Both the position numbers and the translations under genes were made by a program. DNA of 64,000 nucleotides from Chloroflexota bacterium (GTDB lineage: Bacteria; Chloroflexota; Limnocylindria; Limnocylindrales; CSP1-4): contig PLZO01000034.1 of assembly GCA_003152165.1 (NCBI GenBank), forward strand, positions 2,264 to 66,263, in the 5' to 3' direction. Every line of letters starts with the position of its first letter. The stretch's first letter is position 1. Below are positions 7,775 to 43,438 of the stretch, piece after piece. The notes under the pieces are model-generated. The model was given only the letters and a program-made list of their open reading frames with translations, was not told where the DNA came from and made no database searches.

Positions 7775-8902
7775 ATGTCTCCCTTAGAGGCGACCAACGA
7801 GCCACGCGGGCGGATTCGCGAGTTCGGGTTGGTCGTTGGCCGACATCCGGCCGGCCCGCACAACGCGATCACGGACGTTCCTGGGGTGCGCGTCGGTCAT
7901 CGGACGGTGATCCGGGGCGAGCCCGGTGGTTCGGAATCGGTCATCCGGAGCGGCGTCACTGCGGTGATCCCCCACGGTGGCGACCTGTTCCGCGAGCGCG
8001 TCTACGCCGCGACATCGGTGTTCAACGGCTACGGCGAGGTGACCAGCAACATCGTCATCGACGAGTGGGGCATGATCGGTAGCCCGATCGTGATCACCGA
8101 CACGACCCATATCGGCCTCGGCTACGACGCCGTCTGCCGCTACATGGCCGACCGGGATGCCGCCGTCGGCGACCTCGACGTCGTGATCCCGGTCGTCGCC
8201 GAATGTGACGATGGGTTCCTGAACGATAACCGTGCCTTCGGCTTGGCCCGCGAGGATTTCTTCGCGGCGCTCGACGGAGCATCCGAGGGTCCGGTTCCAG
8301 AAGGCGCGGTGGGCGGCGCGACGGGCACCCAGCAATTCGACTTCAAGGGTGGCATCGGCACCGCCTCGCGGGTCCTCGACCTCAAGGGCCAATCCGTCAC
8401 CGTGGGCGTCCTGGTCAATACGAACTATGCGAACCGGCACCAACTCGAGATCCGGGGCGTCCCGGTCGGGCGCGAGATCACCGACCTGATGCCCGAGTAT
8501 CACAAGGAAGGTTCGTGCATCGCTGTGGTGGCCACCGACGCGCCACTCCATCCGCGCCAGCTCCGCCGGCTCGCCCGGCGGGTCGACGTAGGGCTGGCCC
8601 GGACTGGCTCGGTCGGCAACGATGGCTCGGGCGAGATCTTTATCGCCTTCTCCACGGCGAATCGGATTCCGCGGGAGACTCCTCGCCTGGGCCATCCGGT
8701 GGAGGTGATGGCCGAGGGCCAGTTCTGGACGCAGGGCTCGCCCATGGATCGGCTCTTCGAGGCCGTCGCAGACGCCACCGAGGAGGCCGCCCTCAATGCC
8801 CTGTTCCAGGCAACGACGATGCGCGGCCGGGACGGCCACGTACTCCACGCCCTGCCCATCGGCCGGACGCTCGACCTGCTGCACACCTGGAGGATCCTGT
8901 GA
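7775..8902 (+). CDS. peptidase S58 / DmpA-family L-aminopeptidase (D-Ala esterase/amidase)
   Basis: 375 aa. ITDVPGVRVGH...SGVTAVIPHGG...NGYGEVT...GSPIVITDT pattern of DmpA/ArgJ-fold P1 aminopeptidases. Start 3 nt after the permease stop. Confidence 0.75.
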   Translation: MSPLEATNEPRGRIREFGLVVGRHPAGPHNAITDVPGVRVGHRTVIRGEPGGSESVIRSGVTAVIPHGGDLFRERVYAATSVFNGYGEVTSNIVIDEWGMIGSPIVITDTTHIGLGYDAVCRYMADRDAAVGDLDVVIPVVAECDDGFLNDNRAFGLAREDFFAALDGASEGPVPEGAVGGATGTQQFDFKGGIGTASRVLDLKGQSVTVGVLVNTNYANRHQLEIRGVPVGREITDLMPEYHKEGSCIAVVATDAPLHPRQLRRLARRVDVGLARTGSVGNDGSGEIFIAFSTANRIPRETPRLGHPVEVMAEGQFWTQGSPMDRLFEAVADATEEAALNALFQATTMRGRDGHVLHALPIGRTLDLLHTWRIL

Positions 8903-9936
8903 CTGACTCTCCTGCGCCGCTCGCCGAGCGCTTCGTCCAGGACCCGGCGTCCTACGCCTGGACCTTTGGCGGCTATGACCCGATCCGCCGGGTGAAGCCC
9001 GGCGAGGTTCTCGACTTGTTCGTCGAGGACTGCTTTGCTGGGCGGATCCGGAGTACCGCGGATCTGCCTTCGAAGTCGATTGAGTTCCCGTTCATCAATC
9101 CCCAGACCGGGCCGTTCTACGTGGAGGGTGCCGAACCCGGCGACACGCTCGCGGTCCACCTGATCGACGTCCGGCCGGCCCGCGACTGGGCGGTCAGCGC
9201 TCACGTCCTCTTCTTCGGCTCCCTGACTGGCACGCGCTACACGGCCGGGCTCCAGGAGGCGCTCCCGGAGAAGGTCTGGCTCTACCGGGTCGACGCCGCG
9301 GCCAACGAGCTGACGTTCGATGCCCTTGAATCCGACTTCGAAATGCGCCTGCCGCTCGAGCCGTTCCACGGCACGATCGGGGTGGCACCGGCCGCCTTCG
9401 AGGTCCGCAATGTGCTCGTGCCCGAGGCGTTCGGGGGCAACATGGACTCGCCCGATGTGAAAGCCGGAACCACGATCTACCTCGGGGTGAACGTGCCCGG
9501 AGCGTTGTTCTCGCTCGGCGACGGCCACTACCGGATGGGCGAGGGCGAAGTCTGCGGCGCGGCCGTCGAGGGCGCGATGAACACGATCCTCACCGTCGAA
9601 GTCATCAAGGGCGTCTACTGCGAGTGGCCCCGTTTCGAAGACGACGACTCGATCATGGTCGCGGGTTCGTATCGGCCACTCGAGGACGCCTTCCGAATCG
9701 CCCATAGCCAACTCGTGAAGTGGATTTCGGCATCCGCTGGCCTGTCGATGTCTGACACGTACCAACTGGTCTCACAGATCGCCACGTCGAGGATCGCGAA
9801 CGTGGTCGATCCGAACTACACGATCGTGGCCCGAGCCCCGAAGCGGTTCTTGCCCCGGGACATTCCGTGGATGGGTGGCGTCCACGATCGCCTTCGGACG
9901 ATCGGGCGGACCGTCCTCGCGACCCAGGGACGGTGA
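8899..9936 (+). CDS. acetamidase/formamidase (FmdA_AmdA) family amidohydrolase
   Basis: GTG 8899 after ggagga, overlapping previous stop (GTGA). 345 aa with ...FPFINPQTGPFYVEGAEPGDTLAVHLIDV...NMDSPDVKAGTTIYLGVNVPGALFSLGDGHYRMGEGEVCGAAVE characteristic of formamidases. Confidence 0.8.
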   Translation: MTDSPAPLAERFVQDPASYAWTFGGYDPIRRVKPGEVLDLFVEDCFAGRIRSTADLPSKSIEFPFINPQTGPFYVEGAEPGDTLAVHLIDVRPARDWAVSAHVLFFGSLTGTRYTAGLQEALPEKVWLYRVDAAANELTFDALESDFEMRLPLEPFHGTIGVAPAAFEVRNVLVPEAFGGNMDSPDVKAGTTIYLGVNVPGALFSLGDGHYRMGEGEVCGAAVEGAMNTILTVEVIKGVYCEWPRFEDDDSIMVAGSYRPLEDAFRIAHSQLVKWISASAGLSMSDTYQLVSQIATSRIANVVDPNYTIVARAPKRFLPRDIPWMGGVHDRLRTIGRTVLATQGR

Positions 9937-29368: not shown

Positions 29369-29980
29369 CGGCCCAACCCTGATAAGGCCCTCACCGGGAC
29401 GCTGCCGAATCGGCATCCATCATCTATTCGAATCGTGCATCGCGAAGTGCCCGAATAACGACGAGTGGGAGGATCGCGCCGGCGTCCCGTCGACGCGATC
29501 GACGCGAGGGACCCTCGGTGGTGGGGTCGACAGCGGGGATGGCGAACCGTTTGGATCGCCCGAGGCCGCCCACTCACATCTTGGTCGGCTCTGGCATTGC
29601 TCAGACATTTGTGCCGAGCACGTACCGAATGCTTGCCGAGAGCACCCTTGGGGACGGCGACTACTGGTCGTCCGCCAAGTTGGTGCCGGTGCTCCGACCG
29701 TTTCTCGTCAACGGCTGAGGGAGCAAGTGCCGGCGTAGCGTGCCGTTACGGGCCGAACCGCCGGACGCGCATCCACATCGATCGGAATGCGTCGTCTCAG
29801 GCGGCACGTTAGGGGGTGGTTATCGTGAGTCCCGAGGTCCGCTACGGGCGGAGGTGCCTCCGAGGTTCGCCTCAATTGGGATGTTGGCCTGACCGATCTA
29901 GGCAGGGGCGTCAGGTAGCGTGACCGGAGAGTGGCGGCACCGCTACGCTTGCAGAGGTCTCGACAAGCATGTGCACTTAG

Positions 29981-32260
29981 GTGGGGGCCCTCGTGTCAGG
30001 AGACGACCAGCGGCGCCGCCAACTCTGGCAGCTGGCGGATGAGCTCCGCGGTTCCACCGAGGGCCGAAGCCGACTAAGCCTGCTCCGCGAAGCCGCTCTC
30101 CGTGGTTTGATGCCGACCTGGCGTGACCAGGCAGAGCTGGCGGCAGCCGCGGGGGTCGAGGATTCCGTAGATCCGTCGATCGTCGCCGACTTCCTGCTCG
30201 CCCTGACGGACCGCGAGGCGCCGAAACGCGTCCTTGACCCCTGGGCCGGACTCGGCGTGACGCTCGCGGCGCTCGAGTCGGAAGGCCGCGTTCGATCGGG
30301 CGTCGCGATAGAGATCAACCAGGACATCTACGAGCTCGTCATGGCGCTCCGTGGAGGATCGCGGATCCAGTGGCTGCTCGGCGACGCGTCGGAAATTCTG
30401 GCCGATGGACTCGATCCCTTCGATCTGATCGTTGGCTTCCCGCCGATCAACCTTCGGCCTGCGGTGCTCGAGACGCAGAGGCCCCACATCAGACTGAGGT
30501 CGAGCAAGACGTACACGATGCTCGTCCAGGCGGCGCTCGTCCTTGGGCCTGCGGGGGTTCTCGTGGCAGTCCTGCCAGAGAGCTTCTTCGGGAGCCCCAA
30601 CCTGGCGGTGCGCGAGGCGCTCAAGGCCGCGTCCGTCTTCCCAGTCGCCTCTTTTGCGTTGCCGCGCAGGGTCTTCTCGACCTCGATCGCGATGAGCCTG
30701 GTCGTCTTTGGCCGCGAGGCCGACAAATCTCTGTTTGTCGCTGAGCTCGATCCATCAACAGACATGGTGGCGGTCGTCTCTAACTTCCGTGCGCGGAACG
30801 AGGGTGTCCTCCCTCAGCTCGGCCGGCTCGTCACGAGGGCGTCGTTCATATCCTGGCGAGGCGTCATTGGGGACTCGGAGATTCGCGACGCGGCACGGGC
30901 CGCAGGTCTTGAAGCGGTCCCGTTCTCAACGCTCTGCTCTGAGTTCCATGCTCCGCGAAGAGCAGGCGATCCCTTTGCTCCCAAGCCGAACAGCGTCTAT
31001 CTCCCCAAGCTCGGGACGTCGCCAGCCGTCACTACTATCGATCAGCTCGAGATCAAACCGCAGAACTACCTCCAGCTCGTCGTTCGACCCGACCTAGCCG
31101 ATCCCGCATACGTGGCAGGGTTCCTCAACTCGCAACTGGGCCGCAAGATCCGCGACAGATACGCAACTGGAACCTACATCCCGCAGATCTCGCTTATGAG
31201 TCTTCGGGACGGCTTCGCATATCTCCCTCCATCTCTCCATCAGCAACGAGCCACGGTCGTTATCGCGCGAACCTTGACCGAGCTTCGCCACTCGATGCAA
31301 AGCCTCGATCGTGAGCTTTGGGAGCGACCACTCGCGGCCCGCCGAGTCGAGATGGAGCTCCACGAGCTCTTGGAGGGTGACGGGTCGGAGCGGTGGATGG
31401 AGTCGCTTCCGTTTCCTCTGGCGTCGCTCCTCTGGCTCTATCAGGCGACCGACGATCCCGAGCGCCGATGCAGGAATCTGGTTCGTTTCTTCGAGGGTGC
31501 AACCCTATTCCTCGTCGACCTCCACCTTAGTGCGTTGCGGGGCGATCCCGGCTTGCTTGGCAGCGCAATCGGGCACGGGAGACGGGATGCGGAGATCTAC
31601 TCCAGAGGATCGATCGGAATCTGGGCAGACCTACTCGCGCGGCTAGCCAAGCGCACACGCGAGCTTCTGGCCACCGACTCCTCACGCATCCTCGAGCTCT
31701 TCCGGGTCAGTGATCCTTTGCGGCTTGCTTCTGTTGCGAGCAGGCCCGTCGTCACCGCCCTCTTGCAGGATGGCGCCGGGTATCGTCGGGACTGGATAGG
31801 GCATGCTGCGGTGGCAGGCGTGCCAGAGTGGGAGCGCCGACTCTCACAAGCTGAGGCGACCCTTGCTCGATTTCGTGACGGTCTGGGCGAAGCCTTCGTG
31901 GGATGGGACCTCATTCGACCCGGTCAAGGCCGTAACCATGGAGGCGTCATCACAACCGCAATCGAACAGCTTGTCGGGTCGCGGAGCCACTTTCGGGAAG
32001 GCACCGTTGAGCTCCGTCAGCTTCCCGAAGATGGCGGCCTCTATATGCGCGAGGCGGGGGCCAGTCTGCTACTGCAGCTTGGTCCGCTGTTCCGAATGCG
32101 TCGGAGCCCGGAAACCGCGCAAGATGCGTGCTACTTCTACGATCGGCTTCAGCCGGAAGGCGTCCGCTGGGTGTCCCATCACTACGAGCCCCAACCCGAA
32201 GAGGTTCGCCCCGATAGCGAGGTGGTCCAGCTCATCGCGGAGCTCAACGCATTTGGTTGA
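29981..32260 (+). CDS. methyltransferase-like (gamma-class fold, catalytic tetrad FPPI) - HsdS-like TRD - unknown 400-aa C-terminal domain fusion protein
   Basis: Motif I VLDPWAGLGVTLAAL, acidic loop GVAIEINQD, motif IV position DLIVGFPPI (F and I replace the conserved N/D and aromatic residue). TRD-like segment ...IPQISLMSLRDGFAYLPPSLHQQRATVVIARTLTEL (HsdS consensus LPP..EQ..I). Lies immediately upstream of hsdM. Confidence 0.7.
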   Translation: MGALVSGDDQRRRQLWQLADELRGSTEGRSRLSLLREAALRGLMPTWRDQAELAAAAGVEDSVDPSIVADFLLALTDREAPKRVLDPWAGLGVTLAALESEGRVRSGVAIEINQDIYELVMALRGGSRIQWLLGDASEILADGLDPFDLIVGFPPINLRPAVLETQRPHIRLRSSKTYTMLVQAALVLGPAGVLVAVLPESFFGSPNLAVREALKAASVFPVASFALPRRVFSTSIAMSLVVFGREADKSLFVAELDPSTDMVAVVSNFRARNEGVLPQLGRLVTRASFISWRGVIGDSEIRDAARAAGLEAVPFSTLCSEFHAPRRAGDPFAPKPNSVYLPKLGTSPAVTTIDQLEIKPQNYLQLVVRPDLADPAYVAGFLNSQLGRKIRDRYATGTYIPQISLMSLRDGFAYLPPSLHQQRATVVIARTLTELRHSMQSLDRELWERPLAARRVEMELHELLEGDGSERWMESLPFPLASLLWLYQATDDPERRCRNLVRFFEGATLFLVDLHLSALRGDPGLLGSAIGHGRRDAEIYSRGSIGIWADLLARLAKRTRELLATDSSRILELFRVSDPLRLASVASRPVVTALLQDGAGYRRDWIGHAAVAGVPEWERRLSQAEATLARFRDGLGEAFVGWDLIRPGQGRNHGGVITTAIEQLVGSRSHFREGTVELRQLPEDGGLYMREAGASLLLQLGPLFRMRRSPETAQDACYFYDRLQPEGVRWVSHHYEPQPEEVRPDSEVVQLIAELNAFG

Positions 32261-32302: not shown

Positions 32303-33844
32303 GTGGATGTAGGTCAACTCGAGGGCTGGCTATGGGACGCCGCCTGCGAGATCCGAGGCCCCCTCGACGCCCCCAAGTACAAGGACTACATCCTCCCGCT
32401 CGTCTTCCTCAAGCGTCTCTCCGACGTGTTCGACGACGAGGTGGAAGGGTTGGGAGCGGAGTTCGGCGACCCGAAGGCGGCGGCCAGCCTCGTCGATGGG
32501 GACCATGCCTTGGTCCGCTTCTACCTCCCCGAGGCGGCCCGCTGGCCGAGCATCGCGCGCCGGACGACGGGCCTCGGTGAACACCTGACCGACGCGGTGC
32601 GGGCCGTCGCTCGGGAGAACCCTCGGCTCCAGGGCGTCATCGACGTGGTTGACTTCAACGCCACGACCGCCGGCCAGCGGATCGTTGACGATCAGCGGCT
32701 GGCAGCGTTGGTTCAGGTTCTCGGACGCCACCGCCTCGGCCTCCGCGATGTTGAGCCGGACCTCCTGGGCCGTGCCTACGAGTACCTCCTTCGCAAGTTC
32801 GCAGAGGGTCAAGGCCAGTCCGCCGGGGAGTTCTACACGCCCCGCGAGGTTGGCATCCTCATGGCCCGGCTGCTCGATCCCCAGCCGGGGATGGAAGTCT
32901 ACGACCCCTGCTGTGGCTCGAGCGGCCTCCTCATCAAGTGCCACCTCCGCCTGCTCGAGACCCACGGTGTCGAGGCGAACGGGCATCGACGCTTCCCTTC
33001 GGGCGTGGCTCCTCTTCGCCTGTTCGGACAGGAGATCAACCCATCCACGTTCGCGATAAGCCGGATGAACGCCTTTATCCACGATATGGACGCCGACATC
33101 GCCCTCGGAGACACCATGCGGAGTCCCAAGTTCACGGACGACGATGGTCGGCTTCATCGGTTCGACATAGTCACGGCGAACCCGATGTGGAATCAGGACT
33201 TTCCTCAGTCCACCTATGAGACTGACCCGTACCAAAGGTTCGAGTGGGGTGCGCCTCCGTCATCCACGGCCGACTGGGGCTGGGTCCAGCACATGTATCG
33301 GTCGCTGAACGATCAGGGTCGAATGGCGGTCGTTCTCGACACGGGGGCGGCATCAAGGGGGTCTGGCTCGGAGGGATCGAACCGGGAGCGCGATATTCGC
33401 AAGCGGTTCGTAGAACAGGATCTCGTGGAGGCTGTAGTCCTCCTGCCAGAGAACATGTTCTACAACACCCCGGCACCGGCCATCGTGGCGGTTGTCAACC
33501 GGCGGAAACGCCACCCTGGAGAGATCCTCTTCATCAACGCTTCGGCGCAGTTTGAGAAGGGTAGGCCGAAGAACTATATCGCCGAGAAGCACCTCGACCA
33601 GTTGCGCCAGGTGTTCGAGGACTGGGCTTCGCAGCCAGGACTGTCTGCGGTTGTGGCGACATTGGCCGTATCCGACAACGAATACAACCTCGCACCCAGT
33701 CGATACGTAGCTACCGAGGGTGCCGTCGATGAGTTGCCCCTGGCAGACGCAGTCCTACTTCTGGCTGAGGCCGAGGAAGACCGCGCCGACGCCGACCGTA
33801 GGTTGAAGGCCGTCCTCGACCGACTTGGAGGCGGCATTGAGTGA
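32303..33844 (+). CDS. hsdM: type I restriction-modification system methyltransferase subunit
   Basis: HsdM_N (KYKDYILPLVFLKRLSD), AdoMet motif VYDPCCGSSG, motif IV ANPMW (atypical, usually NPPF). Precedes hsdS and hsdR. Confidence 0.9.
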   Translation: MDVGQLEGWLWDAACEIRGPLDAPKYKDYILPLVFLKRLSDVFDDEVEGLGAEFGDPKAAASLVDGDHALVRFYLPEAARWPSIARRTTGLGEHLTDAVRAVARENPRLQGVIDVVDFNATTAGQRIVDDQRLAALVQVLGRHRLGLRDVEPDLLGRAYEYLLRKFAEGQGQSAGEFYTPREVGILMARLLDPQPGMEVYDPCCGSSGLLIKCHLRLLETHGVEANGHRRFPSGVAPLRLFGQEINPSTFAISRMNAFIHDMDADIALGDTMRSPKFTDDDGRLHRFDIVTANPMWNQDFPQSTYETDPYQRFEWGAPPSSTADWGWVQHMYRSLNDQGRMAVVLDTGAASRGSGSEGSNRERDIRKRFVEQDLVEAVVLLPENMFYNTPAPAIVAVVNRRKRHPGEILFINASAQFEKGRPKNYIAEKHLDQLRQVFEDWASQPGLSAVVATLAVSDNEYNLAPSRYVATEGAVDELPLADAVLLLAEAEEDRADADRRLKAVLDRLGGGIE

Positions 33845-34997
33845 GGGCTGGACAACGGTCCCGTTCGACGAGGCCTTTCGGGGGAAACCGCGTGGCCGTG
33901 AGATACCCCAAATCGAGACTCGCAAAGTACGGTCCAAGGGCCAATGGCCAGTCATTGGGCAGGGTGCTGGTCAGATAGAGGGCTATACCGACGATGGGAC
34001 CTTGTTGTTTCCGGACGATCTCCTGCCGGTGATTCTCTATGGGCCGCACACCAGGCGGATCAAGCTCGTGACCCATCCCTTCGTAGCCGGTCCGAACGTC
34101 CGCTTCATGTGGCCGGCCTCGGACTACGACGCAGAGTTCTCCTACTACATGGCCTCCGCTGCAGATGTGCCTTCGAGGGGATACAACGACCATTTCACGC
34201 TGTTCAGGCAGCAGATGTTTGCGAGACCCACGCTCAGGGAGCAGCGTGTGATTGCTACGGCCCTCCGCGAGGCCAGACTCGCTCATCAAGCTACCGAGCG
34301 TGTCCTGTCGGCCGTTCGTCAGCTCAGGGCCAGCATGCTGGAGCGTCTCTTTGCTGGAGGGGTTGGGTCCACGACTTCTGAGACTGTGGTCGGGGCGTGG
34401 CCGATGCGTTCGCTCGGTCAGATGGTCCATCCGGACCGCCCTATCTGCTACGGGATCGTCCAACCCGGTCCCGACGTTCGCGACGGCGTTCCATTCGTCA
34501 ACCTCACGGATTGCCACGACGGCGAGATTGACGTCGGTCGCCTAAAGCGAACCAGTACAGACATCGCCGCGAGAAACTCGCGATCCCGACTCCAGGCGGG
34601 CGACGTGTTGGTCTCAATTCGGGCCACGGCCGGCAGGATCGCGGTTGTTCCGCCGGAGCTGGACGGTGCCTTCACAACACGCGGGATGGCCCGAGTTAGC
34701 CCGGCCCCATGGGCGGACTCCCATTTCATCTCGTACTACCTGCAGACCTCGGCGGCCCAAGCGTTCCTAAGGTCGTCCATGCGGGGCGTCGCCCTTCGGC
34801 AAGTGAACATCAGAGACCTCAGGCAGATGCCCGCGCCAGCACCCCCGCTTGAGATCCAGACCCAGATCGCAGGTGCCCTCCAGGACGTAGATGCGAAGCT
34901 TCTCGCCGAGAAATCTCGGAGTGCAGCTCTGGAAACCCTGTTCTCCGTCCTTCTGCGTGGCCTGACAAGTGGGCGGATCCAGGTTTCGGATTCGTGA
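33825..34997 (+). CDS. hsdS: type I restriction-modification system specificity subunit
   Basis: Two TRDs separated by conserved helical spacers (...LREQRVIATALREA... and ...PLEIQTQIAGAL...). TTG start overlapping hsdM by 20 nt. Confidence 0.85.
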   Translation: MEAALSEGWTTVPFDEAFRGKPRGREIPQIETRKVRSKGQWPVIGQGAGQIEGYTDDGTLLFPDDLLPVILYGPHTRRIKLVTHPFVAGPNVRFMWPASDYDAEFSYYMASAADVPSRGYNDHFTLFRQQMFARPTLREQRVIATALREARLAHQATERVLSAVRQLRASMLERLFAGGVGSTTSETVVGAWPMRSLGQMVHPDRPICYGIVQPGPDVRDGVPFVNLTDCHDGEIDVGRLKRTSTDIAARNSRSRLQAGDVLVSIRATAGRIAVVPPELDGAFTTRGMARVSPAPWADSHFISYYLQTSAAQAFLRSSMRGVALRQVNIRDLRQMPAPAPPLEIQTQIAGALQDVDAKLLAEKSRSAALETLFSVLLRGLTSGRIQVSDS

Positions 34998-37879
34998 AGT
35001 CGCTCGCCTCGGAACGAGATGTTGTGCAGGCGTCCTTGGTTCGCTATGCGATCAGCGTCGGATGGGAGTACAAGAGCCGTGACGACTCAGTCACCCTCCG
35101 ACGCGGCGAGACAGGGGTCGTATTCCACGACATTCTCGTCGAGCAGCTCCAACGCCTGAACCCCGGTGTGGTGGATCGCGCCCGAGCGGAGGACCTTGTG
35201 GGCCGCCTGGTGCGCGTTCGCCCGACCATCGAGGGGAACCTCGACGCGTGGGAATACCTCCGCGGCCTCAAGACGGTCTTCGTCCCCAATGAGAATCGCG
35301 AACGGAATGTCCGTGTCGCTGACCTGGAGGACATCGGGCGCAACGTATTCCATGTGACAGACGAGTTCTCGTTTACGAACGGGACGAAGACCATCCGCCC
35401 GGACGTAGTTCTCCTTGTCAATGGCATTCCGGTCGTCGTGGTCGAAGCGAAGGCGGTCACGAAGCAGGGTGGAATTGCTGCGGCCCTCGACCAACTGGTC
35501 CGATATCACCGTGAAGGTCCCGAGCTGCTGGCACTCGTCCAGCTTCAGACGCTTACCCAGCTCGTTCGCTTCTACTACGGCGCGACTTGGTCTTTCTCAT
35601 CGAAGTACCTATTCGACTGGCGCGACGAGGCAACGGGGAACTACGAGATGCTCGTTGAGTCGTTCCTTGACCCACGTCGAGTTCTCCGAGTCATCTCGGA
35701 TTTCATCCTCTTCACTCGCACCGACGAGGAGCTGTCCAAGGTCGTCCTGCGTCCCCACCAGATCAGAGCGGTCGAGCATGTCGTTGAGCGGATTGCCGAT
35801 AAGGACCAATCCCGCGGCCTTGTCTGGCACACCCAGGGGAGTGGAAAGACCTACTCGATGCTCGTAGCGGCGAAGAAGGTCATCGAGTCGCCTATCTTCG
35901 AGAACCCGACCGTCCTTATCCTCGTGGACCGCAACGAGCTGGAGGCGCAGCTCTTCGGGAACCTCGAAGCGGTCGGCTTCGGACACGTCGAGCTCGCCGA
36001 GTCGAAGCGCCACCTCCGGGATCTCCTGACCCACGACCACCGAGGGCTGATCGTCTCGACGATCCACAAGTTCGACGGGATGCCACCTCGCGTCACCGAG
36101 CGCGAGAACGTCGTGGTGCTGGTCGATGAAGCCCATCGGACGACCGGGGGCGACCTTGGCAACTACCTAATGGGCGCGCTGCCAAATGCCACCTACATCG
36201 GGTTTACGGGAACGCCTATAGACAGGTCCGCACAGGGCAAAGGCACATTCAAGACCTTTGGGGGAGGCGATCCGAGGGGTTACCTCGACAGGTACTCGAT
36301 CCGCGAGTCGATCACCGATGGCACTACGGTGCCCCTCCACTATGCCCTGGCTCCGAACGAGCTCCAGGTGGACCGTGAGGTACTCGAGCGGGAGTTCCTC
36401 TCGCTGGCTGAGCTCGAGGGTGTCAGCGATATCGACGAGCTGGACCGGGTCCTCCAGCGGGCGGTGACGCTTAGGAACATGCTCAAGAACCCGGATCGGG
36501 TCGAGAAGGTCGCGACCTACGTCGCCGAGCATTTCCGCTCCAACGTGGAGCCGATGGGCTTCAAGGCGTTCCTCGTCGGCGTAGATCGAGACGCCTGTTG
36601 CCGCCTGAAAGTCGCCCTCGATCGGCATTTGCCGCCTGGCTACTCGAAGGTCGTCATCTCCGCAGCTCAGAACGACCCTGCTGAGATTGCCGCCTTCCAC
36701 ATTTCCCACGAGGAAGAGCGACAGGTTCGCCGCTTGTTCCGCAAGGCCGATGAGCTACCCAAGATCCTGATCGTGACGGAGAAGCTCCTTACCGGTTTCG
36801 ACGCCCCGATCCTCTACGCGATGTACCTCGACAAGCCGATGCGTGACCACGTGCTGCTCCAGGCGATTGCACGGGTGAACCGACCCTACGAAGACGGCGA
36901 CGGGCGGCGGAAGACTTCTGGGTTGGTCCTCGACTTCGTCGGCATTTTCGAGAAGCTCGAGCGGGCGCTGGCATTCGACTCCGAGGATGTCGCCGGACTT
37001 GTCGAGGACCTCGACGTTCTCCGCCGGCAGTTCGAGCGGCTGCTCGCAAGCGGTCGGACGAAGTACCTGGCGCTCGGAGAAGGGCTGATGGCTGACAAGA
37101 TCGTCGAGGCTGTCCTCCTCGCCTTCCGGGATGCCGAGGCCCGCGACGCCTTCTACGCCTTCTACCGCGAGCTCGAGGAGCTATACGAGATCCTCTCTCC
37201 CGACCAATTCCTCAGGCCCTTCATCGACGACTTCGGGCGCCTTTCGGAGATCTACCGCCTGCTTCGCGCCTCCTACGAGCCCAGCTTGGACGTGACCCAC
37301 AGCTTCCTCCGCAAGACGGCCGCCCTCGTCCAGGAGCAGACCCACACAGGCACGATCCGTGAGGTCGAGGAGGTCTACGTCCTCAATGAGGGCGTGATTG
37401 ACGTCCTCGCGGACCCAGACAAGCCCGAGGTGATCAAGGTCTTCAACCTTCTGAAGGTGCTGGATCAGCAGGCTCGCGATCGTTCTAAGGAGGCTCCGTA
37501 CCTCATCCCGATCGGGGAACGGGCGGAAGAGGTGGCTCGAGCGTTCGAGGATCGGCAACTTACGACGCAGCAGGCTCTCGATGAGCTGACCGGGCTGCTC
37601 AACGAAGCACGCGAAGCCGACTCCTCTCGGGAGGCATCCGACTTTTCCGTGGAAGGGTTTTCGGTCTTCTGGCTCCTAAAGCGCATTGGAGTGGTCGACG
37701 CTGAACCCATCGCCAGATCTGTCGAGGCGGTCTTCGTCGAGCATCCGTACTGGCGGCAGAGCGCGACGCAAGAACGCGACGTGCGTCGCGACCTCTATAA
37801 GTCGCTCATCGAAGCCAAGGTGACGGAGGTCGGGGACGTTGTTGGATATCTCCTGAGCGTCCTTCGCAGGTCAGCGTGA
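34994..37879 (+). CDS. hsdR: type I restriction enzyme endonuclease/helicase subunit
   Basis: 961 aa. N-terminal PD-(D/E)xK region, Walker A HTQGSGKTYSM, DEAH (LVDEAHRT), helicase C motifs. Overlaps hsdS stop. Confidence 0.9.
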   Translation: MKSLASERDVVQASLVRYAISVGWEYKSRDDSVTLRRGETGVVFHDILVEQLQRLNPGVVDRARAEDLVGRLVRVRPTIEGNLDAWEYLRGLKTVFVPNENRERNVRVADLEDIGRNVFHVTDEFSFTNGTKTIRPDVVLLVNGIPVVVVEAKAVTKQGGIAAALDQLVRYHREGPELLALVQLQTLTQLVRFYYGATWSFSSKYLFDWRDEATGNYEMLVESFLDPRRVLRVISDFILFTRTDEELSKVVLRPHQIRAVEHVVERIADKDQSRGLVWHTQGSGKTYSMLVAAKKVIESPIFENPTVLILVDRNELEAQLFGNLEAVGFGHVELAESKRHLRDLLTHDHRGLIVSTIHKFDGMPPRVTERENVVVLVDEAHRTTGGDLGNYLMGALPNATYIGFTGTPIDRSAQGKGTFKTFGGGDPRGYLDRYSIRESITDGTTVPLHYALAPNELQVDREVLEREFLSLAELEGVSDIDELDRVLQRAVTLRNMLKNPDRVEKVATYVAEHFRSNVEPMGFKAFLVGVDRDACCRLKVALDRHLPPGYSKVVISAAQNDPAEIAAFHISHEEERQVRRLFRKADELPKILIVTEKLLTGFDAPILYAMYLDKPMRDHVLLQAIARVNRPYEDGDGRRKTSGLVLDFVGIFEKLERALAFDSEDVAGLVEDLDVLRRQFERLLASGRTKYLALGEGLMADKIVEAVLLAFRDAEARDAFYAFYRELEELYEILSPDQFLRPFIDDFGRLSEIYRLLRASYEPSLDVTHSFLRKTAALVQEQTHTGTIREVEEVYVLNEGVIDVLADPDKPEVIKVFNLLKVLDQQARDRSKEAPYLIPIGERAEEVARAFEDRQLTTQQALDELTGLLNEAREADSSREASDFSVEGFSVFWLLKRIGVVDAEPIARSVEAVFVEHPYWRQSATQERDVRRDLYKSLIEAKVTEVGDVVGYLLSVLRRSA

Positions 37880-38340
37880 CACCCGAACTTCAGCAGGTCG
37901 AAGCCGTCTCCGCCGCCAGCTTTAGGCGGGACGTTAGGGTCTGGTCAAAGCGGGTCGGCGTCGAGATCCGCGAGATTCGGCTTCGGCCCATGAAGCGAAA
38001 GGTCGCGTCGGCATCGTCAAGTGGCCGGCTCACGTTCGATGTCGGGCTTCTTACCGAGCCTGCCGATCGTCGAGCCGAGGTCGTCGTTCATGAACTCGTC
38101 CATCTGCGGGTCGGCAACCACGGCGTGCTATTCCGGAGCCTCGTCCGTGCTCACCTCGCTGAGCAACAGCTGGGTCACCGTCGACGCGACAGAACCCATG
38201 TGCCGCCTCGAAACGAGGTTCGAGCGCCTTCGCAGACGAGGGGCCGAGCTGGCGCAACGGGATTTGCAAAACCCGAGCAGGTACGTCTCGATTCGTGTCG
38301 TCATCGTTTGGGAACGTCAGAGAACAGGCCGACTCGGTAG
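37876..38340 (+). CDS. YgjP/DUF45-like metal-dependent hydrolase, C-terminal half only
   Basis: ...WSKRVGVEIREIRLRPMKRKVASASSSGRLTFDVGLLTEP...VVVHELVHLRVGNHG (HExxH). Family often accompanies type I R-M operons. N-terminal half absent and C-terminal tail looks degenerate. Confidence 0.55.
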   Translation: MTPELQQVEAVSAASFRRDVRVWSKRVGVEIREIRLRPMKRKVASASSSGRLTFDVGLLTEPADRRAEVVVHELVHLRVGNHGVLFRSLVRAHLAEQQLGHRRRDRTHVPPRNEVRAPSQTRGRAGATGFAKPEQVRLDSCRHRLGTSENRPTR

Positions 38341-38634: not shown

Positions 38635-39976
38635 AAGCAGGACCACCTTGACGTTGCGTGGACCTGGGTTAGCTGAGCGTTGGCGACCTCCTTCGATCAG
38701 TCGGGGTTGGGCGTGACGGGGACCTCGTCGAACCGGCCCTCGCGGGCCGCGAGGCTCTCGCGGAAGCGGTAGGACGAGCCCCGGAACTCGAGCACGTGGC
38801 AGCGGTGGGTGAGCCGGTCGAGGAGCACCGCGGTCAGCCGCTCATCGCCGGCGAAGACGCTCGTCCAGTCGGCGAACTCGAGGTTGCTCGTGATGATCAG
38901 GGCACCCCGGGTATAGCGGTGGGCAAGCAGGGTGAAGAGCAGCTGACTTTGGGCGTGCTCAAGGAGCTCGGGCACCAGGGCGCTCATGGGCGAGACCCGA
39001 GCAGACGGCTGTACAGACCGACATCGCCGGCCGGGACGCCACGTTGACCAATGCCGCTGGGAACGGGATGCGTGGGCTGCTCGTGGCCAGCGTCCCGGTG
39101 AGCGCCGCGCGGACGCCCGCGGCCGTCACGTCGCCCCGGGCCAGGGCGGTGGCGCAGGCCGCCCGCGAGCGGACCGGCTCGACGTCGGCGCCCAGAGCGC
39201 AGATCGCGAGGAACGCGCGATGGGCCTGTCGCCGGTCATCGGGGTGGGCCGCCTCGAGGGCGTCGAGGATGGCCTACGCTTCGGCCGGGAAGGCCGCCTG
39301 GCGGACCGGGATCGCGTTGGCGAAGGCACCGGGCTTGCCCACGAGTGCCGGCAGGTAATGCCAGAAGTCGGTGGTGAGCGTCCCCTTGGCCGTCGCCCGC
39401 GGGTGACTCGCGACCTGGCCCGTCCCCGTCCACAGCTCGACCGATCTGGCGTACGCCCGCAGCCACAGGGCGGCGCCGGCATGGCGGACCGGGACCGAGT
39501 AGCGGCTGCCGTCGACGGCGACGAGGGCCTGGGCCGATGCCCGGACCGGATGACGGGTGCACGGCAGGAACGGTCGGACCGGGAGCGGGGCGAGCAGGGG
39601 CCGCTCGGCGGCGAAGCGCTGGCCGACGGTGTCGGTCTGGCGCGCCCGGTGCTTCCGTTCGTCGGCCGCGGTCTCGCGGGCCAGACGCGCGTTGAGCTCG
39701 TCGAACGAGTCAACCTCGGGGACCGGCACGAGGTACATCCGCCGGGCATAGCCGACGAGCCCCTCGACGAGGCCCTTCTCATGACCCTCGCCCGTCGTGC
39801 AGTCCGGCTGTGGTGGAAGGCTCGGGCGAGCTCGCGGATGCTCGACCCTTCACGGAAATGGGCGTACCGGATCCGCTCGATATCGACCATCTTGATCAAC
39901 CTTTCCTCCAGGACGGCTGCGGCGTTGAACACCGGCACCGTACTGGTTGACTGGGGGGTCAAGGTGGTCCTGCTTT
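38635..39976 (-). mobile_element. IS21-family insertion sequence, internally deleted (defective istA + istB fragment) with intact terminal inverted repeats
   Basis: 18/18-bp terminal inverted repeats: aaagcaggaccaccttga (38635-38652) and tcaaggtggtcctgcttt (39959-39976). IstA N-terminal HTH (MVDIERIRYAHFREGSSIRELARAF) and C-terminal region (...YSVPVRHAGAALWLRAY...) in different frames. IstB only as C-terminal 96 aa (QLLFTLLAHRYTRGALIITSNLEFADWTSVFAGDERLTAVLLDRLTHRCHVLEF). Element is about 1.3 kb versus more than 2 kb expected. Confidence 0.75.
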
Positions 39977-40142: not shown

Positions 40143-40484
40143 GTGGCACCCGAAGGCTGGGCCGTCACGATAGACCCACTTATCGTTACAAGCGCGAGGG
40201 CCTTGCGGGCGGAGCAGGGTCCGCGGGGTATCGTCGGGCACAGCAATCATAGGCCCGTGCTTGCACAGTGCCTCGAGGTTCTCGTCAGGGGCGATCGTTG
40301 GCGATCGATGCCCTACGTCGCCGCGGCGGAGCTGGGCCGGGCATCGGAGTTCTTGAGGGTTGCAGATCCCGACACTCAGGCCGTGGCCGGGCGGATCGTG
40401 AAACTCCTCAGTGAGCAGGGCTTCCCCGACTACCGCGACCTGCTCCCGTCCGCCGGCGAATGTCGCTATTCACCCGTAGCGTGA
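40143..40484 (+). CDS. hypothetical protein
   Basis: 113-aa ORF, GTG 40143 after gaggagg. No recognisable motif. Convergent with and overlapping the 3' end of the GmrSD-like gene by 19 nt. Confidence 0.35.
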   Translation: MAPEGWAVTIDPLIVTSARALRAEQGPRGIVGHSNHRPVLAQCLEVLVRGDRWRSMPYVAAAELGRASEFLRVADPDTQAVAGRIVKLLSEQGFPDYRDLLPSAGECRYSPVA

Positions 40485-43438
40485 ACCTGGGGCTCGCTGG
40501 TGCCCACGCCAAGAGCTCGCTCGAGGTAGGCGATGGTTTCGGGGTCCCGCAACTTGCACGCCGGCATCTCGTTGGTGAACAGACCGGTCCGCCAGATCGC
40601 CCCGGTGATCGGGCGCGTCGCACTCCACTCCACCCGAACGAGGTACTCACGGAGGGCGGGGTCCTCAGCGTTATGCGACAGCTTCGCTCGGTCGACTAGC
40701 GGTGCCTCCAGGATCGGCACGGTCCGCCCGTCGACTTGGACGGCGTACTCAGTCACAGGTCGCAGCGCGTCCTTGACGATGCCGACGCCGACGTAACCCT
40801 GGACCGGGTACGGCTTGTAGAGGAACACGCGAGCCCCCGGAACGAGGTTCTCGAAGGGCTTCGAGTAAAAGGTGCCGCCGCCGGCGGAGACGAAACCGTA
40901 CCGCTCGGCATCCTCCCACGAGCGATCCCCGATCGTGACGTAGAAGTCGCGTCCATTCCACGGCGGCCGCGGCGTATCTTCGGTCGCTACCGTAACCGCG
41001 TCGGCCATCAGCTCCTCGAGGCGATCGACAATGGCCTCGATTTCTCGGGCATACAGCTGCGTCGGGCCGGCCGGCCCAAGGAGTCGCTCGACCGACGCTG
41101 GCTCAAGCCCAAAGAAGGTTTGGAACGCCTGGGCAGCGCACCAGAGGTCGACACGGTCGTCTCCGCGGATCGATAGCGTGAAGAGGGCCCGCGACCGGTT
41201 GGCCAGGGGCGCAAACATCAGGCTGCGCTTCCAGGGCCGTGGATAGAGGCCGCAGCTGACCGCGCCCTCAACCACCGCCAGAAGAGCGGTCCGAATGGCG
41301 GGGTCGTTCGCCTCGTCAACCACACGCTCGACCCCGACTCGCGACCATTGCAGCTCCTCGTGGCCGTCTTCGGTTTGCCGCTCGAACGATTGTCGGATGA
41401 GCGCCATGACGTCTTCGAGGTCGTCGAAGGTCACGAGACGTACCTCGACCCTCCCTGTGCCCCAGCGACCGACGCCGGTGACATCCCGACCGAGGCCCGC
41501 GGGGTCGTCGAGCTGGTCAATCGCAATGTCGAGATACAGCTTGAGATCGTTGAGCTGCGGAACGACCTCGACGAAGTTCGACGAGAACTTGAAAGCGATG
41601 TACTGCTTACGCACCTCCTCGAGGACGCCGGTATCGAGGTTGTAGATGCGCTTGCGAAGCTCGTCGTAGAGGGGGCCCAACGGGCCGCCGAGCGACGGGT
41701 GATCGTCCAGTGTGTACACGGCACCCGGTTTGGTCTTCCGGTACTTCGCCAGCGTTTCCTCTGAGAGCTTGGGCGCGGGCCAGATCTGGAGCGCCAGGTC
41801 GGCGAGCAGCTCGGCACGTTGCTGGATCTCCTGCTCATTCCAGTGGTCGAGTTTCGCGAGATACTGGTTGAGCCGAAGATGGCTGTCCCGGAACCCTCCC
41901 TTGATCGTCAACTTCTCGGCGAACGGCCTATCGCTGAGCTCCGAGTTGTACCCGGTTAGGGTCACGTTGCCAACCGTGTGCAGCCATCGCTCGTGCACCG
42001 CCTTCCAGTCGATCCCTAGTTCTTCCTGCCACTCCGGGGACAGGTCAGGGTTCTGGGGCATGACGTGCTCGATCGTGTAGCTGTCGACGTCGATTGGTTC
42101 CTTGTGGTCGAAGTTCTCGAGCTTACGCAGGAGGTAGTTGCGACTGCGGAAGTTGTAGACATCCTTGACGATGAAGGCGTTTCTGAACTCTTCGTCGGTT
42201 GGCATCCGAGCGTACGATTCCCTGAGCAGGAAGGCGGCCTTCAGACTCTCGACGTAGTGGGTCCCGTCGATCTCCGTCGCGAGCGCGGCAAAGGTCTTGT
42301 TGAGAATGTTGGTCGGGATTCCTGTGATCGCCCGACGAAAGACATAACTCTCCACGAGCCTGACGACCTCGATCAGCTCGGAATCATCGATCGTGCCGGT
42401 TTCGTGGTCGTGCAGGACGTCGAGGAGGAACGGATACGCGACATCAACCTTCAGCTGATTGAGATCAGCGATAGCGGCGTGGAGAACCATGTCCTCGGCG
42501 CGGCCGAAGGCGAGCTTGACCCAGTTCTTCGAGTGAGAGTAGGCGTCCGCGACGAGCTCCGCCTTGGATGACTCCTTCGCCCGATCCAGCAACTTGAAGC
42601 TCTCGTAGACGCGGTCGATCCGCGGGATCTGACCCGTCTTCATTGTCAGGTAGTCACGCATGAAGCGGTCGAATAGGTCCTGCTGGTCAGCCGGGAAGGA
42701 CTGCTCGAGCGGATACCACGACGTGGAGTAGATCTGGGCTTGTTCCTTGGACGGCAGACCCATGAGCACGTAGTTACGGATCAGGTCTGCCTGTGAGAGA
42801 TCGAGACCGGTCGAGTTCAGGCTCTCGAAAATGAGCTGCGGATTGTCGTGGTCGCGCTCAAGGGCGATGTCGACGATTAGCAGTTTCTCGATGCCCGTCA
42901 GCACGGATGGGAGCGGCAGGGTTGTCCGTCGCAACTGATCCACGAACAGGCGGTAGGTATCGACGAGTCTGGGCGCCTGGCCAGGATCGATCTCCCGACC
43001 GTCGACGAGCCGCATGAAGGTGTCGCGATCCCCTTTTGTGAGGAGGAGTTTGTAGCGAGCCTCGACACCCGCGTCCTCATCGTCCTCCTGCAGCAAGTAA
43101 TCCCTGACGATCCGATGGGCCGTCGCCTTTGACGCCTCCTCGCCTCCGTTGAGCGCGTGAGCCAGAGCAAGCAGAATGAGCGAGACCGTGGTCAGTCGTT
43201 GCTGACCATCGATGACTTCGATCCGATTCGATCCGGTTACGACGTAGATACCGGTATCGATGTAGACGATCGAGCCGACGAAGTGGGCGCCCACGTCTCC
43301 ACTCGAGGCGCGGACGATATCGCTCCAGAGTTGGTCGCACTGCTCGCGCGTCCAGCTGTACGTGCGCTGATAGATCGGAATCTCAAGCTGGTCGCTCTTC
43401 TTCAGAAACTTGAGGAAGTTGGCCTCGGCTGCTTTCAC
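40466..43438 (-). CDS. GmrSD-like type IV (modification-dependent) restriction endonuclease, DUF262 + DUF1524, with about 400-aa C-terminal extension
   Basis: N-terminal DUF262/ParB-like (IPIYQRTYSWTREQCDQLWSDI...IDGQQRLTTVSLIL), DUF1524 HNH-like (TIEHVMPQNPD...WLHTVGNVTLTGYN). C-terminal region contains a beta-rich module (WNGRDFYVTIGDRSWEDAERYGFVSAGGG...GYVGVGIV) of unknown function. Confidence 0.85.
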   Translation of the reverse strand: MKAAEANFLKFLKKSDQLEIPIYQRTYSWTREQCDQLWSDIVRASSGDVGAHFVGSIVYIDTGIYVVTGSNRIEVIDGQQRLTTVSLILLALAHALNGGEEASKATAHRIVRDYLLQEDDEDAGVEARYKLLLTKGDRDTFMRLVDGREIDPGQAPRLVDTYRLFVDQLRRTTLPLPSVLTGIEKLLIVDIALERDHDNPQLIFESLNSTGLDLSQADLIRNYVLMGLPSKEQAQIYSTSWYPLEQSFPADQQDLFDRFMRDYLTMKTGQIPRIDRVYESFKLLDRAKESSKAELVADAYSHSKNWVKLAFGRAEDMVLHAAIADLNQLKVDVAYPFLLDVLHDHETGTIDDSELIEVVRLVESYVFRRAITGIPTNILNKTFAALATEIDGTHYVESLKAAFLLRESYARMPTDEEFRNAFIVKDVYNFRSRNYLLRKLENFDHKEPIDVDSYTIEHVMPQNPDLSPEWQEELGIDWKAVHERWLHTVGNVTLTGYNSELSDRPFAEKLTIKGGFRDSHLRLNQYLAKLDHWNEQEIQQRAELLADLALQIWPAPKLSEETLAKYRKTKPGAVYTLDDHPSLGGPLGPLYDELRKRIYNLDTGVLEEVRKQYIAFKFSSNFVEVVPQLNDLKLYLDIAIDQLDDPAGLGRDVTGVGRWGTGRVEVRLVTFDDLEDVMALIRQSFERQTEDGHEELQWSRVGVERVVDEANDPAIRTALLAVVEGAVSCGLYPRPWKRSLMFAPLANRSRALFTLSIRGDDRVDLWCAAQAFQTFFGLEPASVERLLGPAGPTQLYAREIEAIVDRLEELMADAVTVATEDTPRPPWNGRDFYVTIGDRSWEDAERYGFVSAGGGTFYSKPFENLVPGARVFLYKPYPVQGYVGVGIVKDALRPVTEYAVQVDGRTVPILEAPLVDRAKLSHNAEDPALREYLVRVEWSATRPITGAIWRTGLFTNEMPACKLRDPETIAYLERALGVGTSEPQVHATGE

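Follow-up and report, generated by a model that had tools for sequence, protein, structure and literature searches.

Why should a type I restriction-modification (R-M) operon be headed by a second methyltransferase-like gene whose catalytic motif is lost? The question is raised by a 64,000-nucleotide stretch of the Chloroflexota contig PLZO01000034.1 (hereafter, the window), in which the gene studied here, X, lies at 29981..32260 on the + strand, as do all the features of X described below. The initial annotation, made from the sequence alone, described X as a pseudo-methyltransferase fused to a HsdS-type target-recognition domain (TRD), and wavered between a recognition adaptor, a second specificity provider, a regulatory decoy and a decayed gene. 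From the ORF (open reading frame) listing, the translation, profile searches and a structural model, we find that one chain carries a catalytically dead HsdM-derived methyltransferase fold, a HsdS-type TRD, a HEPN domain and a beta-rich domain; we hold this architecture with high confidence. On balance we favour the reading that X is a methylation-dead, HsdM/HsdS-derived sensor controlling a HEPN RNase, serving as back-up immunity, or as a decoy, next to type I R-M. Our confidence in a sensor-effector defence role is moderate, and in any particular trigger low.

The intact reading frame proposed earlier is borne out: translation from a GTG start gives 759 amino acids with no internal stop. A start four codons further in (29993) gives the 755-residue version of the gene caller on three metagenome contigs, on which the identical X protein occurs with the same neighbours. 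The closest relative in the genome collection, from a Candidatus Dormiibacterota metagenome-assembled genome, is 55% identical. We found 61 homologues that match over the full length, at 25-63% identity, and the 80 homologous loci found in genomes are spread over many bacterial phyla and the archaeal order Methanomicrobiales. A profile of residues 450-759, the C-terminal module, matches 1669 clusters at 50% identity, 847 of them at E <= 1e-30; the best 150 of the 1669 are mostly proteins of 735-800 amino acids with the module at the C-terminus. These homologues and profile matches mark X as a real gene under selection, and its family, as delimited by profile similarity, comprises at least 847 clusters in bacteria and archaea.

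One reading offered at the outset was that X could be the decayed remains of a type IIG or BREX PglX-like gene, and its order of methyltransferase, TRD and spacer is indeed that of PglX and type IIG enzymes. PglX/BrxX and the type IIG enzymes likewise join a methyltransferase, a TRD, a double-helix spacer and a C-terminal extension in one chain, but they keep NPPY/F and methylate DNA, and their C-terminal regions are winged helix-turn-helix/coiled-coil or similar. The nearest profile matches of X are to HsdM; the PADLOC PglX model gave only a marginal match, and that to only one X relative; and neither BREX partner genes (PglZ, BrxC) nor a fused nuclease domain were found at the X locus. Decay is refuted by the conservation data (an intact frame, full-length relatives in archaea and in different bacterial phyla, and motifs that do not vary), and we regard it as barely credible.

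The whole X protein has no match in Pfam, NCBIfam or the PDB sequences; its AlphaFold2 (AF2) model has a mean predicted local distance difference test (pLDDT) score of 89.4. A short helical segment (residues 1-62, 29981..30166) begins with a HsdM-like 'LWxLADELRG' that aligns weakly, by profile, to residues 3-36 of EcoR124 HsdM; a full HsdM_N domain is absent, with no match in a Pfam scan. Next comes a HsdM-lineage Rossmann methyltransferase-like domain (residues 63-290, 30167..30850). The PADLOC mad2 methyltransferase model matches X at 1.4e-14, and N6_Mtase is matched by 21 of 38 relatives at E <= 0.1. In a Foldseek search the N-terminal half of the model matched 7eew best (1.4e-12), with M.TaqI, CamA and HsdM also found. 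A 38-member family profile run against PDB chains placed 7eew (1.8e-13) second to EcoR124 HsdM (2.7e-14), and also matched 3ufb, 5ybb, 2okc and EcoKI (1e-5). The 7eew protein, a minimal fused type I methyltransferase (M-half-S) from Vibrio vulnificus YJ016, resembles X in holding a HsdM domain, a single TRD, an 'LPSLEKQ' motif and a conserved-region helix in one chain, but its N-terminal domain is longer and it lacks the HEPN+beta module.

The order of motif I, motif IV and TRD on the Rossmann fold is that of gamma-class methyltransferases, as first described, and the AF2 model, the Foldseek hits and the HsdM profile matches agree on this. Judged from the translation, the S-adenosylmethionine (AdoMet)-binding loop, motif I, is kept in X (DPWAGLG, residues 86-92, 30236..30256). 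In the family alignment of 129 members used for all motif counts here, its D is found in 120, P in 121, G90 in 111 and G92 in 119. X also retains E111 of motif II and D135 of motif III. At motif IV, X reads FPPI (residues 153-156, 30437..30448), within FDLIVGFPPINL (residues 147-158), so that both the catalytic N/D and the stacking aromatic are lost. The family profile sets 'FDlvVsspPig' against 'FDAIVSNPPYS' of EcoR124 HsdM, and no second [NDS]PP[YFW] occurs anywhere in the X protein; FPPI therefore marks the true motif IV position, where the initial annotation had put it.

Is this loss peculiar to X? A canonical [ND]PP[YFW] occurs in only 4 of the 129 relatives and SPP[YFW] in 5. Position 1 of the tetrad is S in 44 members, C in 18, I in 12, A in 9, F in 8, V in 8 and E in 7, and position 4 is F in 38, I in 25, L in 16, M in 16, W in 15 and V in 12. 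Just 55 members have E or D as the acidic residue of motif II, and motif III varies too. The cognate HsdM proteins at X loci keep their tetrad in all 33 cases (NPPF in 20, NPPY in 8, NPMW in 5), and X is always extra to hsdM and hsdS, never replacing them. The loss is old and family-wide rather than private decay. We infer that X has not been selected to transfer methyl groups, and family members are almost certainly non-methylating; the "methylation-dead" part of the earlier proposal thus stands.

One might still imagine X as an active methyltransferase with a non-canonical motif, acting on DNA at N4-cytosine or N6-adenine, or on RNA. Serine, the commonest residue at tetrad position 1, is a signature of N4-cytosine methyltransferases, motif I is retained, and nine members do carry [NDS]PP[YFW]. 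However, the hypervariability of positions 1 and 4 is incompatible with a conserved catalytic role, X itself has F and I there, and motif II is degenerate. We rejected this reading on the tetrad and motif II evidence, and rate it highly improbable. As a separate observation, 7eew is also non-canonical at this position in the profile alignment ('YDFVISGVPFG', with GVPF at motif IV), resembling the VLPF and ILPM of some X family members.

The third element is a single HsdS-type TRD (residues 300-418, 30878..31234), conserved family-wide. The earlier call is upheld by the PADLOC Specificity_I model (6.2e-5) and by the family profile, which over residues 362-476 matches S.BsaXI (6.3e-6) and HsdS chains (3e-4 to 3e-3). 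The HsdS hallmark YLPPSLHQQRATVVIAR lies at residues 413-429, and its 'LPPSLHQQR' junction, aligned to 'LPSLEKQRE' of 7eew, leads into two spacer helices (419-448 and 450-465 in the AF2 model), the whole (residues 414-465, 31220..31375) matching a HsdS conserved region. In place of the HsdS layout of two TRDs and two conserved regions, the X model has one TRD and one spacer helix pair. The TRD does not evolve as a specificity determinant would: its identity is 0.55-0.65 where that of whole X is 0.58-0.68, and it holds family-wide motifs, whereas the neighbouring HsdS are only ~0.35 identical where their HsdM are ~0.8 identical. The TRD swapping typical of real HsdS was not seen in X, whose TRD has diverged at much the same pace as the remainder of the chain. 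We therefore reject X as a second specificity provider; the pattern argues for a constant ligand over diverse DNA sequences.

A conserved TRD bears also on the possibility that X is a cofactor sensor, whose AdoMet pocket would detect AdoMet depletion or S-adenosylhomocysteine build-up (caused, for example, by phage AdoMet-degrading enzymes) and thereby de-repress the HEPN RNase. That motif I is nearly invariant though catalysis is lost would fit, as would the retention of E111 and D135 in X, the AdoMet dependence of type I R-M and an AdoHcyase gene near X in six loci. Yet the motif II acidic residue is missing from most of the family and motif III is variable, a pure cofactor sensor would have no need of a conserved TRD, and the proximity to AdoHcyase largely reflects synteny conserved in a single archaeal order. 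We find this reading quite unlikely.

What the TRD might be coupled to is indicated by the C-terminal region, which was first described as about 400 uncharacterised amino acids and which we measure at ~310 (residues 450-759). Residues 466-636 (31376..31888) are modelled as a four-helix up-down bundle of the HEPN kind, with H1 at 478-489, H2 at 493-519, an insert between helices 2 and 3 at 520-587, H3 at 588-607 and H4 at 614-635. Helix 1 carries LPFPLAS and helix 2 FFE, both essentially invariant, and the acidic E505 of helix 2 is at least 90% conserved. The dyad R602-x5-H608 (31784..31804) is invariant in R and H in 129 of 129 members, and in the AF2 model it straddles the point where helix 588-607 ends and the loop to helix 614-635 begins; the residue after the dyad R is N in 101 members and R in X. 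A survey of HEPN domains (PMC3710099) describes Rx4-6H at that site, its R followed by a polar residue, together with an acidic helix 2 position and a helix 2-3 insert. Beyond the bundle lies a beta-rich domain with a helix cap (residues 640-759, 31898..32257; beta part 640-745) that carries ACYFY and RWVSYH motifs. Columns conserved at 80% or more make up 15-17% of the HEPN and beta domains, versus 7% of the methyltransferase-like domain.

We consider it likely that residues 466-636 are a HEPN domain and, by prediction, an RNase. Two results weigh against this. Foldseek of the C-terminal model against the PDB found nothing significant, only weak DH-PH-like matches; and no curated HEPN family was matched in Pfam, NCBIfam, PHROGs, PADLOC or the PDB sequences (the C-terminal profile was run against PDB, NCBIfam and PHROGs, and the C-terminal sequence of the window protein against PADLOC). 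With its invariant R-x5-H, the HEPN domain turns X from the adaptor first proposed into a sensor-effector fusion.

The HEPN+beta module is not confined to X. In a second search, 34 of 72 matches placed it behind Ser/Thr kinase domains, in proteins of ~580 amino acids, and it was also found behind a reverse transcriptase. All invariant residues are common to the kinase-, reverse transcriptase- and X-fused modules, and the module boundary is sharp, at profile position ~452 (X residue ~450). The kinase halves resemble the defence kinases PD-T4-6 and mad6. For the reverse transcriptase, the PADLOC models that match best describe retron fusions encoded by a single gene (RT-Protease, RT-TIR and RT-Toprim), so that HEPN+beta sits in the effector slot. 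Shared by pseudo-methylase, kinase and retron reverse transcriptase fusions in defence islands, the module looks like a mobile effector cassette; we infer that it would be the toxic output and that the N-terminal domains would be interchangeable sensors or regulators. It thus ties together three otherwise unrelated classes of defence gene, and current defence-system finders miss all three, since no curated library covers it.

Other HEPN RNases with regulatory fusions include the kinase-KEN proteins RNase L and Ire1, whose layout the kinase-HEPN fusions recall, the reverse transcriptase-HEPN protein AbiA, and the CARF-HEPN proteins Csm6/Csx1. The X module differs from these in matching no curated family, in its extra conserved beta domain and in its LPFPLAS, FFE and ACYFY motifs.

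Some of the loci bearing these other fusions deserve description. One kinase-HEPN gene (L085 1-17731, gene 8001-9731) lies in a DISARM-like locus with genes for a SNF2 helicase, an Eco57I/MmeI-type methyltransferase, a further helicase, and MZB, PLD and HNH proteins. More kinase-HEPN loci (L084 and L090-L092) have other defence or mobile-element contexts, and the reverse transcriptase-HEPN protein P0275 (L087) adjoins a DUF433/DUF5615 pair.

How closely is X tied to type I R-M? We examined the 45 genome loci in which X is flanked on each side by 4 kb or more, and counted X as linked where at least two hsd genes lay on the same strand within 8 kb. X was linked in 32 of the 45, and 13 were unlinked, with no hsdR nearby. 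The order in the linked loci was M-S-X-R in 15, R-M-S-X in 4, M-S-R-X in 4, X-M-S-R (the arrangement of the window) in 2, and others in 7. M-S-X-R is the slot of PrrC in EcoprrI. The distance to an hsd gene was at most 75 nt in 25 of the 32, with a 4-nt overlap in 11. The only recurrent neighbour besides the hsd genes is the type IV restriction gene GmrSD, found at 13 loci and in the window. X co-varies little with either HsdM or HsdR (rho 0.23-0.27, against 0.66 between HsdM and HsdR), and it combines with unrelated type I lineages. Given this weak co-variation, the unrelated partners and the unlinked loci, X is a portable accessory and no obligate subunit, and we do not claim a physical complex of X with the R-M enzyme.

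A possible objection is that X acts as an alternative M+S module that docks HsdR and guides its cutting to some constant feature of DNA, such as the modifications of phage DNA, while methylating nothing, the HEPN domain being auxiliary. The tight operon coupling with hsdR, in M-S-X-R order and with 4-nt overlaps, would suit such a role, as would the HsdM-lineage fold with its TRD and the frequent co-occurrence of GmrSD. First, however, X lacks the HsdM_N domain and C-terminal tail. Second, it hardly co-varies with HsdR, and at the unlinked loci there is no hsdR nearby to dock. Third, the same C-terminal module pairs with a kinase and a reverse transcriptase, partners unrelated to HsdR, and the invariant R-x5-H argues that RNase is the selected activity. 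We judge HsdR docking unlikely.

The same neighbourhoods bear on the idea that X is an addiction toxin, retaining the R-M island or a plasmid by post-segregational killing independently of phage. HEPN toxins are frequent in toxin-antitoxin systems, and the loci are mobile, with insertion sequence fragments in the window and occurrences on mobilizable plasmids. But a conserved small antitoxin-like partner gene, sought beside X, was not found, hsdM, hsdS, hsdR and GmrSD being all that recurs there; we think this explanation very unlikely.

Two plasmid loci may be noted. On the Gordonia mobilizable plasmid pJH63-1 (L093 7381-9900), the order is hsdM-hsdS-hsdR-X-...-SIR2, and the X homologue is split into two coding sequences by a frameshift or mis-call; Streptomyces plasmids carry a solitary homologue near a Pycsar effector gene, of 943 amino acids in L094 (7114-9945). 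RefSeq labels these homologues 'N-6 DNA methylase', with the Gene Ontology term 'DNA methylation'. A large family found in many phyla is thus labelled in public databases in a way that is almost certainly wrong and, the family being almost certainly non-methylating, methylome and R-M inventories that count it would be wrong too.

The Methanomicrobiales homologues lie outside type I R-M operons (L041 9815-12798, L044 3793-6749, L061 8317-11432, L076 3-3646, and L052). In L041, L044, L061 and L076, X abuts or overlaps by 4 nt a downstream OGG_N/HhH-GPD glycosylase-like gene of ~284-295 amino acids. X adjoins the AdoHcyase gene on the opposite strand in conserved synteny, and these X proteins share just 32-57% identity. 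The arrangement could be a pointer to a DNA-base-sensing role.

We return to the preferred reading, a methylation-dead sensor in control of a HEPN RNase, and to how it might work. The M/S-like half of X would be the sensor and the HEPN half the toxic RNase effector, and the outcome would be abortive infection or back-up immunity next to type I R-M. We speculate that the M/S-like half is a bait resembling a type I methyltransferase, that a phage anti-restriction DNA mimic (of the Ocr or ArdA type) or some invariant DNA feature binds it, and that binding changes the conformation or oligomeric state so that the HEPN active site is assembled and cellular RNA is cleaved. HEPN RNases generally require dimerisation to form their active site, making it plausible, if speculative, that a bound ligand throws the switch by rearranging or dimerising the M/S-like half. 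The title of the 7eew entry states that this relative was crystallised with the DNA mimic Ocr; its authors reportedly found an (M-half-S)2 dimer whose TRD cleft is occupied by Ocr.

Two known systems supply the parts of this scheme. In Ronin, a HsdMS decoy frees a toxin in response to Ocr, ArdA or Aop1, and the system still works with motif IV mutated, methyl transfer being dispensable (bioRxiv 10.1101/2023.04.06.535777). Ronin (HsdS, HsdM and the 61-amino-acid RonA) would share with X an R-M methyltransferase-like bait for anti-restriction proteins coupled to a killing effector. It differs in consisting of three separate genes with a small membrane effector and an intact HsdM, usually without hsdR, whereas X is one polypeptide with a dead methyltransferase and a HEPN effector, normally beside a complete hsdMSR. 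PrrC (of the type Ic EcoprrI) and RloC, like X, place a HEPN-type RNase gene inside a type I R-M operon, and R-M-linked HEPN proteins have been predicted, on the PrrC model, to act as latent RNases that are set free once restriction fails. At its N-terminus PrrC carries an ABC-type NTPase domain where X has its HsdM/HsdS-derived pair, and no sequence similarity was detected between X and PrrC. The hsdS-X-hsdR slot, that of PrrC, is the commonest position in the X family, although in the window X stands upstream of hsdM instead.

X would unite the logic of Ronin (an R-M decoy and a toxin) with that of PrrC (a HEPN RNase guarded by R-M) in a single polypeptide; it is a candidate case of one molecule giving decoy or guard immunity. 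In its most specific form, which we offer tentatively and think less than probable, X is a single-chain 'integrated decoy' receptor, in which a dead M plus half-S bait for anti-restriction proteins or phage DNA switches the fused HEPN, while HEPN+beta is a previously unrecognised mobile effector shared with the kinase and retron reverse transcriptase fusions. The decoy idea in the initial annotation came close to this mechanism but missed the HEPN effector.

R-M-linked HEPN back-up effectors and decoy immunity are both known already, and the X family is a fresh variation on them. We found no description of its architecture in the searchable literature (outside which most subscription-journal papers lie), and the BREX and HEPN surveys that we consulted make no mention of it. 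The HEPN census of 2013 states that R-M-linked HEPN domains are fused to nucleases, helicases and ATPases 'but not to the methylases'; the X family is an exception to that statement, though its methylase is dead.

In the window itself, the complete hsdM-hsdS-hsdR set reported downstream of X is present on the + strand: hsdM (32303..33844, 513 amino acids; N6_Mtase at 3.6e-85, and HsdM_N), hsdS (33825..34997, 390 amino acids) and hsdR (34994..37879, 961 amino acids, with both GSGKT and DEAH motifs). X and hsdM are separated by 42 nt, one fewer than first given, and the three hsd genes and a following YgjP-like ORF overlap or nearly abut. The GmrSD gene (40466-43438 on the - strand; GmrSD_N, GmrSD_C and DUF5655) lies 2.6 kb past hsdR. 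The locus is a defence island beside ordinary metabolic genes. A 66-amino-acid ORF upstream of X (29518-29718) matched no family, a scan for sigma-70 promoters and terminators gave no useful signal in this 62-68% GC DNA, and base composition across the window showed no sharp island boundary.

The stretch between hsdR and GmrSD differs among sister contigs. An IstB/IS21 fragment was called there on the contigs L081 and L082, which carry an identical X gene; in the window it corresponds to a 96-amino-acid minus-strand ORF at 38697-38987. The YgjP-like metallopeptidase ORF of the window (37876-38340) overlaps the hsdR stop codon by 4 nt and is shortened to 154 amino acids, covering profile positions 114-195 of 207. 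YgjP-like ORFs also follow hsdR in loci L024, L025, L037 and L049, while L082 is without one.

Finally, the cognate HsdM of the window has NPMW at motif IV (residues FDIVTANPMWNQD) rather than NPPF or NPPY. The four loci whose HsdM is closest to it (L025, L037, L039 and L049) share NPMW, the remaining 28 cognate HsdM having NPPF or NPPY, so that the variant characterises this HsdM lineage. In PADLOC, the HsdM of the window matches best to PDLC03028, a model of 1236 positions that leaves X unmatched; since HsdM aligns only at 724-1232, members of the lineage seem to exist with an N-terminal extension of ~720 residues.

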